In this document: in pieces, positions 23,116 through 57,417 of the stretch
Layout of the letters: every line of letters begins with the position of its first letter
Position numbering within the stretch: position 1 is the first letter of the stretch
Translations under genes and position numbers: made by a program
Assembly: GCA_944392785.1 (NCBI GenBank)
Contig: CALXXW010000013.1
Span: 52,903 to 116,902 of the forward strand
Length of the DNA stretch: 64,000 bases
From: an uncultured Alphaproteobacteria bacterium
GTDB lineage: Bacteria > Pseudomonadota > Alphaproteobacteria > CAAHEQ01 > UBA3637
Direction: 5' to 3'
The notes under the pieces: model-generated
The model's input: only the letters and a program-made list of their open reading frames with translations
What the model was told of the DNA's origin: nothing
Databases searched by the model: none

Positions 23116-23961
23116 TTATTTCATCAATAAGCCTAAGATTTTTATAAGTTCAGACCGTAATTTCTTTCGATGAACGACCTGATCCAACATACCATGCTCT
23201 AACAGATAGCTTGCTTTTTGGAAGTTGGGTGGTAATTTTTCACGAATGGTTTGCTCAATAACGCGTGCTCCGGCAAAGCCGATAACAGAACCAGGTTCTG
23301 CCAAGGTAATATCACCCAACATAGCAAAGGAAGCCGTCACACCTCCTGTTGTCGGATCCGTCAAAACCGTAATGTATGGGAGTTTTTTCTTCTTCAGTTT
23401 TTTGACAGCCACGGTGGTGCGCGCCATCTGCATCAAGGATAAGATTCCCTCTTGCATACGAGCTCCTCCCGATGCGGGGATTAAGATGAGAGCTGCCTCC
23501 TGTAAATCCGCTAGATGGGCTGCCATCACAATCGCTTCCCCCACATACGTTCCCATAGAGCCTCCCATAAAACTAAAATCAAACACACCGATAACGGCAT
23601 TTTTTCCACCGATTTTCCCGTGTGCTACGATAATAGCATCGTCATTTTTAGTCTTTTTACGCGCCTCTTTCAAACGATCGGTATACTTTTTAAGATCAGC
23701 AAATTTTAACGGATCCTCTTTAACTTTTGGCAGTTGGATCAGCGTATACTCATGGTTATCAAACAGCATATCCAGACGCTTGAGAGAGGGAAGACGAAAG
23801 TGATGGTCACATCGTGGACAAACGAAATCTGATTTCGTAATCTCCGAATGAAAAAGCATCGCTCCGCAATCGGGGCATCTGTCCCAAAAATTATCGGGAA
23901 TATCCTTGTGAATATTAACCTTTTTAACGGTTGGGCGTGTTAAGTTGGTAATCCAGTTCAT
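23116..23961 (-). CDS. accD: Acetyl-CoA carboxylase carboxyltransferase beta subunit
   Basis: C4 zinc finger, FMGGSMG, SGGARMQEG, PTTGGVTASFA motifs. Confidence 0.97.
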   Translation of the reverse strand: MNWITNLTRPTVKKVNIHKDIPDNFWDRCPDCGAMLFHSEITKSDFVCPRCDHHFRLPSLKRLDMLFDNHEYTLIQLPKVKEDPLKFADLKKYTDRLKEARKKTKNDDAIIVAHGKIGGKNAVIGVFDFSFMGGSMGTYVGEAIVMAAHLADLQEAALILIPASGGARMQEGILSLMQMARTTVAVKKLKKKKLPYITVLTDPTTGGVTASFAMLGDITLAEPGSVIGFAGARVIEQTIREKLPPNFQKASYLLEHGMLDQVVHRKKLRSELIKILGLLMK

Positions 23962-23967
23962 GGTTTT

Positions 23968-24255
23968 CTAAGCGCTTTTTCTACCGTTTAAGGCATCATT
24001 AACATTTTTGCCTGCTTTAAAGAAAGGAATCTTTTTGGCGGCGACCTGAACATGGGCTCCCGTTTTGGGGTTTCTTCCCATGCGTGCGTGACGTTCACGA
24101 ACGGACAAAACACCAAAGCCACGCAACTCGACACGATTGCCCTTGACTAAAGCTTTGGTAATTTCATCAAAGACGGTTGTCACCAAACGATCTGCATCAG
24201 CTCGAGTCAGTTTTGTTTGTTTCGCGATTTTAGAGATTAATTCTGATTTAATCAT
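23968..24255 (-). CDS. ihfB: Integration host factor beta subunit
   Basis: MIKSELI, RVELRGFG, R.GRNPKTG, P.FKAGK motifs. Confidence 0.88.
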   Translation of the reverse strand: MIKSELISKIAKQTKLTRADADRLVTTVFDEITKALVKGNRVELRGFGVLSVRERHARMGRNPKTGAHVQVAAKKIPFFKAGKNVNDALNGRKSA

Positions 24256-34866: not shown

Positions 34867-35463
34867 TTAGCTAAATACTTTAATGCGATCTTGGATGGGT
34901 AGAAACGCCTTTTCTCCTGGTTCTGTCACTGGTTTCCCAAACGGCATTTGGGCAATCAGTTTCCAATTTTTAGGCACGCCCCAATTTTGATATACCATAT
35001 CATCAACCAGGGGGTTATAGTGCTGCAAAGAGGCGCCGAAACCGGCATCTTCTAATAACATCCAAAGGTTAGATTGCAGCATACCATTTGCTTGAGCGGC
35101 CCACACGGGAAAATTTTCTTTATAGAGTGAAAATTGAGCTGCATATTTTTCGACTGTTGATGTATCGTCAAAGTACAAAATCGTTCCGTAAGCTTTTGAA
35201 AAAGCACTTATTTTATCTTGGGTTGATTGAAACTTCTCCTCAGGTGTCACTTGACGCAAAATTTCCGTCAATTCCCTCCAAAATTTTAAATGCTGTTGAT
35301 GCAGCAAGACAAGAAGCCGAGCACTTTGCATGTTAAATGCTGAGGGCGTATGTTTTAAAGCCGTTTCCGCTAATGTAATGATTTCAGCATCTGAAATAGG
35401 AGCCTCTGCCGATAACGTGTAATATGTTCGACGTTGTTGAATAGCATTGATTAAAGATGTCAT
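34867..35463 (-). CDS. Nitroreductase family protein (Frm2/Hbn1-like)
   Basis: RRTYY.L, PSAFN.QS.R, GASLQHYNPL, W.L.AQMPFG motifs. Start set at MTSLIN (35463). Confidence 0.9.
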   Translation of the reverse strand: MTSLINAIQQRRTYYTLSAEAPISDAEIITLAETALKHTPSAFNMQSARLLVLLHQQHLKFWRELTEILRQVTPEEKFQSTQDKISAFSKAYGTILYFDDTSTVEKYAAQFSLYKENFPVWAAQANGMLQSNLWMLLEDAGFGASLQHYNPLVDDMVYQNWGVPKNWKLIAQMPFGKPVTEPGEKAFLPIQDRIKVFS

Positions 35464-35651
35464 GTATATCCTCCTTTTTTTGTTGTCCTGCATGAAAAGA
35501 TACGGTTATTTGAATCAAAAATCAATCATCCTGTATCAAAAAGTCCTTTATCCATTTAAAAAGAGATTTAAAATAAGGGAAACAAACAGAGAACGACATA
35601 CTCCTTGTCGCAAATAGAGTTAGGACAAGCACTCATCCACCAGGTATAATG

Positions 35652-36497
35652 TTAATTTCTGCCATTTCTGAGAGGTGAGGGCATATACACTTCTCCTTTT
35701 GTTCTCTGAGTAATAAAAGCTTCAAATACCTCATGAGCCCGCACCATATTCGTCGCCAAAAGAGGGAGCATTGCCTGGGGTAGAGGACATGGGCAATTCT
35801 CTTTTTTCAAATAATCTTGGGTTATATCCCATCGCCACGGTAAAATCCGTTGTGTCGTCAAATTAACAACCTGCTCAAATGTCTTTCCTTGAATATCGTC
35901 ATACTCGGGAAGAACACCAGGCAACATCGGTAGCTCCTTTTTCAACTGAGTATATTCCTTTAGGGTTCCTCCACACGCCATGAAAGCGCCCAAACCAGCA
36001 GCTATAGCATCAGTTTCAATGACACAGTCACGTACCAAATCGGTGCTTTTTTGTGCATCTGAAGTATAGCTTTTTTCTTCGGGCTTACTCTTATCGTCAA
36101 GAGTAGCAATCGGATTTTTTTGATATTGACAAACATGTTCCAATTCATGTGCCATCAAATACAGAAGAGAGGAAGGAGAATACTGAGAAATTTTATCGGG
36201 ATCTAAAAAAATGCTCAGATTTTGAGAGTATTTATCCTTAAAACATTGAGCGATACGTTGACGATTATCCGATCGATTATCCTTACCCAAGTATATTCGC
36301 TCTAGAATACCACTGGCACCTTCTAAGGCTTTCTTGAATAAATCGGTATGAACATCTATGTTTTTTAGAGCATTTTGAGTCTTTTTCAACGTTTGAATAT
36401 AAGGGCTTAAAGAAAACAATTTTGATCTCAATCCCGCACCGATTGAATTATTAGATCTAAATCCCGTGTCATAATTCCAGATTTCAATAAAAAACAT
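35652..36497 (-). CDS. Hypothetical protein with HExxH motif (putative metallopeptidase)
   Basis: AGGAGG RBS before ATG 36497; LMAHELEHVCQ and a downstream E.DA motif. Confidence 0.65.
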   Translation of the reverse strand: MFFIEIWNYDTGFRSNNSIGAGLRSKLFSLSPYIQTLKKTQNALKNIDVHTDLFKKALEGASGILERIYLGKDNRSDNRQRIAQCFKDKYSQNLSIFLDPDKISQYSPSSLLYLMAHELEHVCQYQKNPIATLDDKSKPEEKSYTSDAQKSTDLVRDCVIETDAIAAGLGAFMACGGTLKEYTQLKKELPMLPGVLPEYDDIQGKTFEQVVNLTTQRILPWRWDITQDYLKKENCPCPLPQAMLPLLATNMVRAHEVFEAFITQRTKGEVYMPSPLRNGRN

Positions 36498-36819
36498 CAA
36501 AAGCCTCCTAGTTGCCTTTTTAAATGAATTTATAAGCCATATACGCATATATGTCAAGAACGAGGAAGCCTTTAATCAAATAACAATTCTAGAGGTATTT
36601 TAAGACATTTTAAGCGTCTTATTATTCACTTTTAACCGTCAGCTCGCTGAAAATCGATGTAATCCAAGGATGGAATAGGGTATCTTAGGCTTTAGAAGCA
36701 TTTGATTTCTTGGCGAGATATCAAAAAGCAGAGTCCAGGAGAAGTCTTGTCTCTTAACATCGGTATATCCTGCAAGAATAATAAATGACCGTGAGCGACG
36801 ACAAGAGCATGAGAAAATT

Positions 36820-37052
36820 TTATTCACAAATTTATCCACATATTTGTTTTTGTCATTATTAACACATTGTTTTATATTCATTTTATTTGTGTTTTTCTTT
36901 TATCATGTTTGTCGCATAATTTATATTATGTATAGAAAGAAGAAAAAGTATAAGTATATAATAAATACAATCAGTTATATGAAATTATCCCCAAAATAGC
37001 CAAAGCTATCGAATGAAATATCTAAATCCTTTTGTAAGAACTTTTTTGCACA
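36820..37052 (+). promoter_or_regulatory. Cluster of DnaA-box-like 9-mers
   Basis: TTATTCACA 36820-28, TTATCCACA 36832-40 (perfect), TTATCCCCA 36985-93, TTTTGCACA 37044-52, all in the same orientation. Confidence 0.55.
36909..36936. other. dif-like XerC/XerD recombination site
   Basis: TTGTCGCATAA-TTTATA-TTATGTATAGA matches the 11-6-11 dif layout (E. coli GGTGCGCATAA-TGTATA-TTATGTTAAAT); KOPS motifs converge on it. Confidence 0.8.
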
Positions 37053-37448
37053 AGCTGGTGTATCAGTTTTAACTCTGTCAGAGCCAAATTATTTGAAACA
37101 CTCGGGGGCGTTTATCATGAGCACCTTTAAAAAGGCTTTCTTTATATAGCATTTTTACCGACTATCCCATATAAAACCAAGACTAAAGCGACATCATGAC
37201 GAAATTTTGAATGTTGAAATAAATCGGCTCTCCCGTTCCATTGATATCTTTTAACGGCATTTTTATCAAAAATTTCACCCGATTGATAACTTGTTTGAAC
37301 CTTCCCTCCGGCCTAAGCAAACAAAAAATTTCAGACAACTTATTAAAATTCTGGAAAAGTATATCATTCTCGGATCTTTTGCCAAGACCGTTCTCTCAGG
37401 CATACACCTTAAAATGAAATCACTGGCTGATTTAAGGAAACGAAACTT

Positions 37449-38258
37449 TTAACCTTTATATTGAAAAACTAAAACACGGACAATATGTCCCATATCTCGG
37501 TATGAGGTTATGAAATCCCATCCGGCGGATTTCATCATCTCTATTACTTCGGTTTCCTGATCCTTTCCGATTTCAAGATAAATGCGACTGTTTCTGTGAG
37601 TATTACATGATAGTTGATGAGCCAAAATGCGATAGAATAAAAGACCATCCTGCCCCCCATCCAGAGCCATCATCGGTTCATATTCTCGCACCTCTTTTGA
37701 AAGTGTGTCAATATCGGCCGTTGGAATATAAGGTGGATTTGAAACAATAATATCAAATCTACCCATATCCCCATACCAATCCGGTTTTTGCATATCTTGA
37801 CAAGTGAAAGACGCTCGTTCGGATAGGCCTAATAATTGTGTGTTTTTAATGGCAATATCAATAGCTTTCTGGGATTTATCAACCCCTATTCCAATCGCTG
37901 ATGGATACTCGGATAATAAAGCTAACAAAAGACACCCGCTCCCTGTCCCTATATCTAAAATCCGTAAGGGCGCTGTCTTGTCTTTCCATTCGGATAAAAC
38001 GGCTTCAACAAGCGTTTCAGAATCTGGACGCGGATCTAATACATCCTGAGATACCAATAATTCCAGTGTCCAAAATCCCTTTCGCCCCAAAATTTTAGAA
38101 ACAGGCTCATGGGCATTGCGTCTGATGATAAAAGCCTCTTCTTGATACTCATCAGCATTGGGACAGGCCTTATAAAAATAGTAGGCATCTAAGATGGGTG
38201 TCTCCGAATATATTAATTTTTGCGCCAAAAAGCGCACTTTATCCTGTATATCGTTCAT
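37449..38258 (-). CDS. prmC: Release factor glutamine methyltransferase
   Basis: EPV..ILG...FW, VLDPRPDSETLV, DIGTGSGC, VSNPPYI, ALDGG.DGL motifs. Start set at 38258. Confidence 0.95.
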   Translation of the reverse strand: MNDIQDKVRFLAQKLIYSETPILDAYYFYKACPNADEYQEEAFIIRRNAHEPVSKILGRKGFWTLELLVSQDVLDPRPDSETLVEAVLSEWKDKTAPLRILDIGTGSGCLLLALLSEYPSAIGIGVDKSQKAIDIAIKNTQLLGLSERASFTCQDMQKPDWYGDMGRFDIIVSNPPYIPTADIDTLSKEVREYEPMMALDGGQDGLLFYRILAHQLSCNTHRNSRIYLEIGKDQETEVIEMMKSAGWDFITSYRDMGHIVRVLVFQYKG

Positions 38259-38259
38259 T

Positions 38260-39327
38260 TCAAGAAACTTCAGCCAAACGAGCCATTTGATCCTCAGCAA
38301 TCAAAGCCTCTATAAAATCATCCAAGTTCCCTTCCATAAATTCACCCAATTGATAACTTGTCTTATTGATACGATGATCTGTGACACGCCCTTGCGGAAA
38401 ATTATAAGTACGGATCCGCTCGGAGCGATCTCCGGAACCGACCTGACTTTTTCTGTCGGCAGAGCGCTCCTTATCCAAAGCCTGGCGTTGCATATCATAT
38501 AAAGCTGTTCGCAAGCGCATAAGAGCCTTTTCCTTATTTTTAAACTGAGAGCGCTCTTCTTGACATTCAACAGCTATTCCCGTCGGTTTATGCACAATCC
38601 GAATGGCAGAGTCAGTCTTATTAACATGTTGGCCACCTGCTCCGGAAGCACGACATGTCGTAATTTCCAAATCTGCCTCATTTAATTTAACATCAACCTC
38701 TTGGGCCTCCGGCAAAACAGCAACGGTTGCCGCAGAGGTATGTACACGTCCTCCGGATTCTGTTTCCGGCACACGCTGTACACGATGAACCCCGGATTCA
38801 AATTTGAGCCGTGCGAATACAGCATTGCCCGAAATTTGCGCAACAGCCTCCTTATAGCCACCCAAGCCCGTATCATTCAATGAAAGCACTTCGAATTTCC
38901 AGTGATGCAAAGCAGCGTAACGTTCATACATCCGAAATAGCTCTGCTGCGAACAAAGCAGCCTCTTCACCACCCGTTCCGGCTCTAATTTCCAGAATAAC
39001 GTTGCGATCATCCGCTTCGTCCTTTGGAAGCAATAAAATTTGTATTTGATGCTCCAATTGCGGCAAGCGTTCTTTAAGTTGGTAGAATTCTTCTTCGGCC
39101 ATCGCCCTCATTTCACTGTCCAAGCCGGTATCAGCAAGCATTGTTTCCATTTCAGAAAGCTCTGAGCGCGATTTAATATATTCTTTTCCTACTTTAACAA
39201 TTTCATCTAATCCATTTAATTCCTTGGATAATTTCACAAATTCCTCTCCGGAAATTCCCTCAGACAACAAAGCTGTCAATTCTTCATGTCGAGCCATCAA
39301 TGGAAGTAATTTTTGTTCAAAATTCAT
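38260..39327 (-). CDS. prfA: Peptide chain release factor 1
   Basis: [16 protein letters not shown] (PxT), [19 protein letters not shown] motifs. Confidence 0.98.
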
Positions 39328-56497: not shown

Positions 56498-57417
56498 ATA
56501 TTCTCCTTAAAAAACGACTTGATTTTTCTTTGAACGGATATCATTTCCGTATCAGCATACACGCTTTGACAAAATTCTGCAACTCCTTTTTGTCCGCGAG
56601 CATACCAAGCAATATGCTTCCGTGCAATAAATAATCCCTTTCTGCCGTAATAACTTAATAACAGATCTAAATGTTGCAACACCAAATCAACCTTAGAAAA
56701 AAGCGGGGTCGTCCCAGTTTCAATTTCCGTCAACATCCAAGGACGTCCCAAAGCGCCTCGCCCAACCATGACACCTTCGGCCTGTGACGAGGATAGAGCC
56801 TTCTTTGCCGAAAGATGATCGACAATATCTCCATTAACAATAACGGGTATAGAAACGGACTCTTTAACACGTTGCACAATCCCCCAATCTGCTTGACCGG
56901 CGTAGCCCTCTTCTTTCGTGCGGGCATGTATTTCCAAACGCGAGGCTCCGGCTGATTCCAGCGTTTTGGCAAAATCAACAATGGATATATGCTCATTATC
57001 CCATCCCAGTCGCGTTTTGACAGACACCGGAACAGACACCCGAGAAGAAATCGCTTCTGTCAACTCCGCTGCCAAAAGCGGATTCCTCATCAAAGCGGCT
57101 CCGCTTCCGTTGGTAATCAATTTTTTCACGGGACAACCCATGTTGATATCCACACCTATCGCTCCGTTATCCACAGCAGCTTGAGCGGCTTCAATCAAAG
57201 CCTCCTTATTCACACCGACCAGTTGAACGACAATATTTTTTTCATCTTGAATAGACATCATTTTACGAGTTGTCGGATGATTTCGATGAAAACTTTCCAC
57301 ACCCATCATTTCGGTAAAAAGCACTTGATTTCCAAATAACCGCACCATATGTCGAAACGGCTTATCCGTGACACCGGCCATCGGCGCTAATAAAACCGGC
57401 TTAGGAAGGTGTGGCAT
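56494..57417 (-). CDS. dusB: tRNA-dihydrouridine synthase B
   Basis: LAPMAGVTD.PFR, DINMGCP, VK.RLGWD, NGDI, MVGRGA.GRPW, RKH..WY motifs. Confidence 0.95.
   Translation of the reverse strand: MPHLPKPVLLAPMAGVTDKPFRHMVRLFGNQVLFTEMMGVESFHRNHPTTRKMMSIQDEKNIVVQLVGVNKEALIEAAQAAVDNGAIGVDINMGCPVKKLITNGSGAALMRNPLLAAELTEAISSRVSVPVSVKTRLGWDNEHISIVDFAKTLESAGASRLEIHARTKEEGYAGQADWGIVQRVKESVSIPVIVNGDIVDHLSAKKALSSSQAEGVMVGRGALGRPWMLTEIETGTTPLFSKVDLVLQHLDLLLSYYGRKGLFIARKHIAWYARGQKGVAEFCQSVYADTEMISVQRKIKSFFKENI

Follow-up and report, generated by a model that had tools for sequence, protein, structure and literature searches.

Tandem DnaA boxes and an IHF-like site at discrete distances from dif in a family of uncultured Alphaproteobacteria

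What would binding sites for the initiator of replication be doing at the place where replication ends? The question is raised by a 64,000-nucleotide stretch of DNA (hereafter “the window”; C13:52903-116902) from the genome of an uncultured chicken-gut alphaproteobacterium, which comprises 25 contigs and 1.12 Mb. A preliminary description of the window had reported five co-oriented DnaA-box-like 9-mers and an IHF-like site around a dif-like site, and had proposed that they form a terminus-located element that titrates or reactivates DnaA. In the models derived from E. coli, B. subtilis and Caulobacter, initiation by DnaA at oriC and the action of XerCD/FtsK at dif are separate modules, and we know of no accessory sequences for a chromosomal dif. 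In this report, we found that a tandem pair of DnaA boxes, a site matching the IHF consensus, and dif very probably constitute a unit that is maintained by selection in the family of this organism, a group of alphaproteobacteria assembled from gut and rumen metagenomes. The order of the composite is fixed (two tandem boxes, IHF-consensus site, dif), as is its orientation; its spacings are discrete, and its flanks are reshuffled. The parts of the unit in this genome, in window coordinates, are these:

36909-36936, plus strand: dif, the 28-mer TTGTCGCATAATTTATATTATGTATAGA, with an 11-6-11 layout (TTGTCGCATAA TTTATA TTATGTATAGA)
36820-36828, plus strand: distal DnaA box, TTATTCACA, one mismatch to TTATCCACA; fits TTWTNCACA
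36829-36831, plus strand: spacer of the box pair, 3 bp, AAT here and AAG in most relatives; 12-bp phasing
36832-36840, plus strand: proximal DnaA box, TTATCCACA, perfect; reads towards dif
36841-36859: spacer between the proximal box and the IHF-like site, 19 bp, not conserved
36860-36872, minus strand: conserved IHF-like site, top strand TAACACATTGTTT, one mismatch to WATCAANNNNTTR, then a T/A-rich tract
36873-36908: spacer between the IHF-like site and the dif arm, 36 bp, AT-rich

The 28-mer at 36909-36936 is a genuine dif at the replication terminus. We take its left arm to be the XerC-type arm, by likeness to proteobacterial dif. The pattern CATAA-N6-TTATG occurs three times in the genome, with conserved arms only at C13:89811. 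Along C13, the cumulative G-C skew reaches its maximum near 74-75 kb, and dif lies at 89.8 kb. When the skew was computed separately for the genes of each strand, and was thereby corrected for gene strand, the top-strand values dropped in both gene classes at C13:75-90 kb: for plus-strand genes they were +0.11 to +0.18 to the left of this interval and 0.00 to +0.03 to its right, and for minus-strand genes -0.06 to +0.03 and -0.15 to -0.17, respectively. Further, all 15 copies on C13 of the FtsK-orienting polar sequence (KOPS) GGGNAGGG point to dif (5/5 on the top strand to its left and 10/10 on the bottom strand to its right), the polarity switching within window positions 24656-45507; because the motif is G-rich, this evidence and the skew are not independent. 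The genes around dif show only a weak strand bias, which is uninformative. Because the skew flips here and the KOPS converge, the locus is the terminus, as the preliminary description had read from the KOPS polarity, and it is not oriC.

An origin was the first alternative to be weighed, because the ingredients of one (tandem boxes, an IHF site and AT-rich DNA) are all present. Indeed, in the available parts of its published accounts (PMC8287927, PMC6669920), the basal unwinding system of oriC likewise consists of a same-orientation tandem pair beside AT-rich DNA, and a loose published rule (a box followed after 0-16 bp by (.A.)x3) would formally be satisfied by a T-run 13 bp after the box. 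That T-run is part of the IHF consensus, and the IHF-consensus site occupies the position where trios would be expected; the family consensus shows no conserved GAT/TAG-type trinucleotide repeats. Here the box closer to the AT-rich side is the stronger of the two, whereas the upstream box is the stronger in the accessible account of the basal system, and the locations differ, this one being at the terminus. The strand-corrected skew is of the terminus type and the KOPS converge; the origin-type skew minimum is on contig C6 (~31.4 kb), ~18-20 kb from parB, parA and rsmG (gidB), and dnaA is on contig C4. That the module is oriC, or a dormant second origin-like unwinding element, is therefore extremely improbable. 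No DnaA boxes were found at the C6 skew minimum itself, and the oriC of this genome could not be pinned. On the same contig, 18 kb from the minimum and beside rsmG-parA-parB, an intergenic cluster of three DnaA-type boxes, one of them perfect (C6:13330-13539), is flanked by a DnaQ-type exonuclease-like gene (identified by eye only) and an unknown gene; it may be oriC or a DnaA-regulated promoter.

The boxes are more numerous than the composition of the DNA would produce. The 441-bp box/dif region is 31% GC, and the dif-like site does lie between boxes in an AT-rich tract, as had been described. Against dinucleotide-preserving shuffles of the same 441 bp, boxes with one mismatch or fewer number three on one strand (mean 0.13), and those with two or fewer number six (mean 1.45), the sixth being a 9-mer at 36856 with two mismatches to TTATCCACA; in each case only 2/5000 shuffles reach the count. 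By number of boxes the cluster is not unique, there being eight places in the genome with at least three such boxes per 300 bp. The position of the proximal box is more distinctive. Perfect copies of TTATCCACA number 24 in the genome, and a crude map of open reading frames (ORFs) places 23 of them inside ORFs; by that map, the copy at 36832 is the sole perfect box that is clearly intergenic, and the one at C6:13539 sits on an ORF edge and is probably intergenic as well.

It is conservation in the family that sets the box pair apart. Eighteen loci were selected by their dif (this genome and 17 relatives, representing at least 15 genera). The relatives from other genera are distant, with PrmC 47-55% identical, DnaA 41-59% identical, and proteins ~50% identical overall. 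A 22-mer dif core was the single best match in 17 of 18 same-family relatives, with no mismatch in nine and one mismatch in eight. The eighteenth (G017) has only a spurious three-mismatch match; its tandem box pair lies at the extreme end of a contig, which suggests that its dif was cut off by the contig break. Extra dif-like sites with a TTTACA or TTTCCA centre are found in G003 (C4:10832, C23:11172, C30:52038) and G018 (C24:31559, C24:31819), and may be Xer-exploiting mobile elements or plasmid sites.

In 15 of the 17 relatives with dif, a co-oriented box with one mismatch or fewer to TTATCCACA lies upstream, 64-90 bp from the GTCG of dif, and it is perfect in 14 of those 15. Tandem pairs (11-12-bp phasing, three mismatches or fewer summed) occur within 160 bp of dif in 16 of the 18 loci, this genome included, compared with none in 47.8 kb of the flanks of these loci and none at dif in ten loci from other alphaproteobacterial families. 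Of 80 family genomes, 36 have a stricter pattern (a perfect box 55-85 bp from the dif core), and these represent 13 of the 16 genera; its reversed control occurs in none of the 80. The motif CACA-NNN-TTATCCACA has 47 copies in the same 80 genomes, at least 25 of which are beside dif by their coordinates and ~14 of which are chance-like; the reversed control has 11. Away from dif, the tandem motif with an ATT spacer, CACAATTTTATCCACA, recurs in four genomes (G014:C53:23450, G041:C16:34295, G056:C50:2349, G088:C40:13465) and may mark another conserved DnaA site, for instance oriC or a promoter.

A larger set of 50 family loci with a proximal box, which, like the family consensus alignment, was partly selected for a perfect proximal box, shows where the pattern ends. 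The distal box, 12 bp upstream of the proximal, is present with two mismatches or fewer in 43 of the 50, and the consensus of the pair with its spacer is ACAaAgTTATCCACA. A third 12-bp unit is not conserved in these 50 loci (at least five mismatches upstream in 49/50, and at least three downstream), and family loci contain no conserved box between the IHF-like site and dif or beyond dif. Thus, among the five boxes named in the preliminary description, all of which are where it had placed them on the plus strand and which do exceed the shuffled background, only the pair at 36820/36832 is kept in relatives.

The IHF-like site, too, is conserved, but it is not the site that had been named near 36965; the latter sequence exists but has two mismatches to WATCAANNNNTTR and is not conserved across family loci. 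The conserved site, at 36860-36872, is to the left of dif, between it and the boxes, and conforms to the published IHF consensus with its A/T tract. A match with one mismatch or fewer to WATCAANNNNTTR is found at a fixed offset in 14 of the 18 dif-selected loci and is perfect in six; the background for such a match is 0.00176 per position per strand. Its offset from GTCG is -49 to -51 in 12 of the 14 loci and -60 or -61 in the other two. The site is also kept in both relatives that lack the boxes (L036 and L038).

Limited to loci whose IHF match has one mismatch or fewer, the distances between the parts fall into two classes, with this genome apart:

Class A: box-IHF gap 6-8 bp, IHF-GTCG gap 36-37 bp; 28 loci
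Class B, in at least three genera: box-IHF gap 18-19 bp, IHF-GTCG gap 47-48 bp; 7 loci
This genome: box-IHF gap 19 bp, IHF-GTCG gap 38 bp; 1 locus

In two contigs of this species from other studies, a 1-nucleotide deletion at 36881 makes the second gap 37 bp. Information content is near 2 bits per position in the boxes, the IHF-like core and dif, and is little in the spacers. A constraint to one face of the helix would predict steps of 11-12 bp, as seen here on both sides of the bend site.

The genes around dif are not constant. In 60 distinct dif loci (eight from outside the family), no neighbouring gene family is common to more than 20. An MBL-fold hydrolase (17/60) and tatD (12/60) are the recurrent neighbours on the right, and ihfB (8/60) and accD (7/60) on the left. 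In this genome, the module sits in a gene-free gap of 890 bp, which holds the dif-like site and all five box 9-mers, between a 301-residue ORF of no Pfam family on the left and a gene for a PrmC-type methyltransferase, followed by prfA, on the right; in the prmC loci of 19 relatives, dif never adjoins prmC. The usual right-hand genes of dif sit here on contig C8. A tblastn search with the relatives' dif-neighbour ORFs against 36400-37600 revealed no gene remnants, the matches being the locus itself and a few weak ones (E 2e-5 to 0.009). From these comparisons, the unit apparently moves with dif rather than with the flanking genes.

The occurrence of ihfB on the left raises another possibility, namely that the boxes and the IHF site are the leftover promoter/operator of an ancestral, divergent ihfB gene, DnaA-controlled and IHF-autoregulated, that abuts dif by chance. 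In the eight loci where ihfB is the immediate neighbour, it reads away from the module with accD behind it, and promoter-like hexamers are frequent in the region (10, as against 4.8 +/- 2.2 in shuffles). But here accD-ihfB is at 23149-24255, 12.5 kb to the left, where there are no boxes and no TTATNCACA near ihfB; the boxes stayed by dif. The left neighbour varies in most loci, and the spacing is fixed to dif, not to any gene start. Finally, a scan for promoters and terminators found no promoter-like site conserved among relatives, and the family consensus is without a conserved -35/-10 pair. We thus regard this explanation as very improbable. The accD and IHF-beta-like genes of this genome keep the order and orientation of the relatives in which both directly abut the dif module, and genes for an ATP synthase beta-like protein, tyrS, a hybrid histidine kinase, a nitroreductase and an unknown ORF are now between them and the boxes.

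The organism encodes the proteins that such a unit would call for. Its XerD-like (310.1 bits) and XerC-like (297.1 bits) recombinases score just below the curated cut-offs of 329.6 and 335.15, respectively, and FtsK carries a gamma domain (FtsK_gamma, 94.3 bits, above cut-off). IHF-beta-like (113.3 bits) and IHF-alpha-like (103.7 bits) proteins are present, their 90-residue core segments just below cut-offs, along with two HU-like proteins. DnaA is canonical: its GRDHTTVMHA aligns to the solved B. subtilis protein, and it matches E. coli domain IV with an E of 6.9e-20. Could other proteins, such as a lineage-specific terminus protein or Xer accessory factor, nonetheless occupy the 9-mers and the IHF-like motif? 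Many class A loci have, between the IHF-like site and dif, a conserved AAGGGAA-like patch to which no factor has been assigned. However, in 47 of the 50 partly box-selected loci the proximal 9-mer is identical to the high-affinity DnaA box, the DnaA of this genome has the canonical domain IV motif, and the published IHF consensus with its A/T tract is matched in a genome that has IHF genes. Binding by such other proteins is decidedly improbable.

A serious rival is that the locus controls DnaA from the terminus, the boxes and IHF site titrating the initiator, inactivating it (as datA does) or reactivating it (as DARS do), with dif a mere neighbour. Because it is replicated last, such an element would double in copy number only at termination, and the close of one round would in this way be coupled to the initiation of the next. 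DARS boxes are oppositely oriented. In the available text of PMC4585315, datA of E. coli is a non-origin locus with five boxes and one IHF site, whose spacing matters and which boxes 2 and 3 flank. The DARS elements of E. coli, in the portion of the literature at hand, have a three-box core, to which DARS2 adds three boxes, Fis sites and a dependence on IHF. The ingredients named in these sources, DnaA boxes outside oriC and an IHF site, are those found here; the element sits at the terminus, it has the sole clearly intergenic perfect box of the genome, and an Hda-like gene shows that control of DnaA-ATP exists in this organism. In arrangement, on the other hand, the loci differ. By the same partial accounts, datA needs boxes on both sides of its IHF site and DARS need their core, whereas here both head-to-tail boxes precede the IHF site and dif follows it; datA, moreover, is not at dif. 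The family loci are thus neither datA, there being no conserved box beyond the IHF-like site to make up the five-box, both-sides arrangement, nor DARS, there being no three-box core.

Two further observations bear on control of DnaA. A titration locus would need neither a discrete spacing to dif nor an attachment to dif amid reshuffled flanks, and the IHF-like site keeps its offset from dif where the boxes have been lost. The spacing locked to dif argues for structural coupling with the XerCD-dif complex over a free-standing titration or reactivation locus. We consider control of DnaA from the terminus unlikely, if still a reading to be taken seriously. What survives of the titration or reactivation element first proposed is its setting, since a unit of boxes and an IHF site is tied to dif at the terminus and is very probably selected; the definitions of datA and DARS do not apply to it.

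How far does the association extend? When one genome per species was scanned across 185,579 species for a perfect box 55-85 bp from a dif core, 67 loci were obtained. In 46, the box is on the GTCGCATAA-arm side; all but one of these (L098) have the family-type GTCG/GGCG arm, and most are, by title, “Alphaproteobacteria bacterium” metagenome-assembled genomes (MAGs) from gut or rumen. Another 16 have the box on the opposite arm and belong mainly to Verrucomicrobiota and Kiritimatiellia, with single Chlamydiae, Lentisphaeria, Marinamargulisbacteria and other MAGs; eight of them share an identical 103-bp span. The remaining five are unclear. Just two loci resemble ordinary gammaproteobacterial-type dif sites, which is about chance by a rough estimate, and the association is thus lineage-specific.

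Among the opposite-arm loci outside the 103-bp group, five of eight have the perfect box 83-85 bp from the dif core (spans of 108-110 bp), which is the span of family class B. Further, the class B gaps, which come to 19-20 and 45-46 bp when the arm edge is the reference point, are found again on the other arm of dif in three Verrucomicrobiota loci (L175, L177 and L181), one locus of Lentisphaeria (L104) and an unclassified MAG (L091). In a dif-selected sample of Verrucomicrobiota (29 of 151 genomes had a strict dif core), strict tandem pairs lie near dif in four loci, as against none in 73.6 kb of flanks, and some ten more loci show, by eye, degenerate tandem 9-mers of the TTATCAACA or TTATTAACA types ~104 bp from dif. 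One Verrucomicrobiota/Kiritimatiellia group (L088, L112, L113, L119, L133, L135, L138, L152 and L158-L160) has three 12-bp-phased box-like units, xxTTCACA-GAC-TTATCCACA-AAG-TTATCGTCG, at a distance of exactly 78 bp from the dif core and on the other arm from that used in the alphaproteobacterial family; a conserved CCACATATAG lies between its boxes and dif, and the IHF consensus is absent there.

The opposite-arm loci suit a different explanation, in which tightly bound DnaA and IHF form a polar barrier beside dif against forks, FtsK translocation or read-through transcription, or else membrane-associated DnaA anchors dif to the membrane. For a barrier or tether, the side of dif is irrelevant, and the boxes always read towards dif. 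A parallel exists in the “iss” of phage T5 (Davison, bioRxiv 10.1101/866236), a terminal repeat with eight boxes in inverted repeats; in the available part of that preprint, pairs spaced by 3 bp, including TTATCAACA and TTATTAACA, the variants also seen beside Verrucomicrobiota dif, are proposed to arrest T5-like phage DNA at membrane-bound DnaA. The likeness consists of such box pairs outside an origin; no dif enters the description in that part of the source, and the function is itself only proposed there. The barrier here would also be one-sided, with the genes to its left mostly reading away and thus little transcription to block, and a barrier would need no IHF site at a set distance from dif. 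We judge a roadblock or tether to be improbable, though it too counts as a serious rival.

We tentatively favor, as a reading that could well be correct, a role for DnaA and IHF as accessory architecture for the XerCD-dif complex. Two DnaA protomers would sit head-to-tail on the box pair, IHF would bend the DNA between the boxes and dif, and the bend would carry DnaA onto the recombinase-bound arm of dif. By a rough estimate of the geometry, a bend on the dif-ward side of the TTGAT core folds the box pair onto the outer edge of the adjacent dif arm in classes A and B, which supports this arrangement. DnaA occupancy could then act as a read-out of the cell cycle that gates or assists the resolution of dimers, or unlinking, at the last-replicated site. 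A precedent for the geometry is the lambda attP intasome, in which an IHF bend at a set distance brings an arm-site-bound recombinase to a tyrosine-recombinase core. There, as here, such a core is combined with an IHF site at a fixed distance and with outer protein sites. The protein delivered in attP is, however, the recombinase itself, whereas in the present unit dif is the core and DnaA boxes take the place of the arm-type sites.

The proposed part for DnaA and IHF is comparable to that of PepA with ArgR or ArcA at cer (ColE1) and psi (pSC101), where, according to the accessible portion of PMC2655662, these proteins bind ~180 bp of accessory DNA and FtsK is not needed. Both kinds of site have an XerC/XerD core with conserved accessory DNA on one arm side, which in the present unit amounts to ~90-115 bp with two conserved protein-site motifs at fixed spacing. 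The differences are that the core here is a chromosomal dif, that the motifs are those of DnaA and IHF, and that FtsK-gamma and KOPS are present.

As the preliminary description had supposed, this DnaA-box/IHF-site/dif composite is apparently undescribed so far. A search of the full-text literature (with subscription-only papers and supplementary files outside its scope) turned up no account of a chromosomal dif with DnaA boxes or an IHF site beside it, and a 2026 review on how E. coli and B. subtilis replicate, in its available part, treats dif only in connection with termination, Topo IV and XerCD/FtsK. If it is indeed selected and phase-locked, the ~130-bp unit would offer a concrete cis-element for cross-talk between the two ends of the cycle, one that is easily testable with four purified proteins. 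It would also explain how origin-finding programs come to be misled by DnaA boxes at termini. The signal belongs to a class that is invisible in the model organisms but present in uncultured gut and environmental lineages.

Several observations weigh against the accessory role. The FtsK gamma domain and the polar KOPS are present, and an accessory system is thus not needed a priori. The boxes are absent from two of the 17 relatives (L036 and L038) and are therefore dispensable in some members of the family, and in each of the two largest genera the strict pattern occurs in just 6 of 21 genomes, a shortfall that is due in part to variant dif spacers or degenerate boxes. The opposite-arm boxes in other phyla mean that a single DnaA-XerC contact cannot explain all of the loci; taken with the loss of boxes in some members, they argue against any single obligatory contact. 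Among 401 Verrucomicrobiota genomes, a strict TTGATW 30-60 bp from the dif core was found only nine times, in eight of the genomes, and its gaps ranged over 34-57 bp and showed no peak; coupling of IHF to dif is therefore not general in that phylum. Lastly, as few as two ancestral indels may account for the spacing classes, and loss of one 9+3-bp box unit could explain the 12-bp step by the boxes just as well as helical phasing. Structure prediction for DnaA together with the XerC-like protein gave a score of 0.00, which counts neither way.

The occurrence of related arrangements beyond the family raises the broader, and more doubtful, possibility that one family is not alone in coupling the initiator to the dimer-resolution site, and that this design is old and recurrent. 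It is conceivable, though we have similar reservations, that DnaA positioned by an IHF bend serves as a cell-cycle input to XerCD/FtsK or, conversely, that dif serves as an input to DnaA. The carriers of such a design would be this family, parts of Verrucomicrobiota/Kiritimatiellia and Lentisphaeria, and possibly Chlamydiae and Margulisbacteria.

The remaining features that had been named around dif are, in window coordinates:

36622-36630, plus strand: weak box-like 9-mer, TTATTCACT, two mismatches to TTATCCACA; not conserved
36985-36993, plus strand: box to the right of dif, TTATCCCCA, one mismatch to TTATCCACA; not conserved
37044-37052, plus strand: box-like 9-mer, TTTTGCACA, two mismatches; fits TTWTNCACA; not conserved in relatives
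36965-36977, plus strand: the IHF-like site named earlier, ATACAATCAGTTA, two mismatches to WATCAANNNNTTR; not conserved

The published relaxed consensus TTWTNCACA is fitted by the 9-mers at 36820, 36832 and 37044, and not by those at 36622 and 36985. Neither 36622 nor 37044 has a conserved counterpart in relatives, and a box with one mismatch or fewer within 100 bp to the right of dif occurs in only two of the 18 loci, this one and L022.

Elsewhere in the window, five of the 24 perfect copies of TTATCCACA (2919, 3916, 36832, 50848 and 57167) fall in 5.7% of the genome, ~3.6-fold over proportional, and all but the dif copy are within ORFs. Three co-oriented boxes (ATATCCACA, TTATCCACA and TTATTCACA) lie in 70 bp at 57146-57214, inside an opposite-strand gene for a dihydrouridine synthase (Dus); they may be due to chance or may be an intragenic DnaA site. 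An Rfam search of 35000-39000 at E<=1 gave no matches, a tRNA search found none close to the locus, and no convincing small ORF was found in the 890-bp gap.

In one contig of this species from another study, a T>A change at 37046 turns TTTTGCACA into TTATGCACA, one mismatch nearer to TTATCCACA; among the 40 differences listed of 62 in the contigs compared, none touches either box of the pair or dif. Contigs from four sequencing runs show no joints at dif, which bears neither way on recombination. In one run (X4), a 6-kb contig of another, co-resident organism matches only the dif core (36904-36935), with two differences, which shows the degree of conservation of dif among co-resident relatives. 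The 301-residue ORF that adjoins the module on its left (35652-36557, minus strand) contains an HELEH stretch of the HExxH type, and may encode a metalloprotease-like protein.

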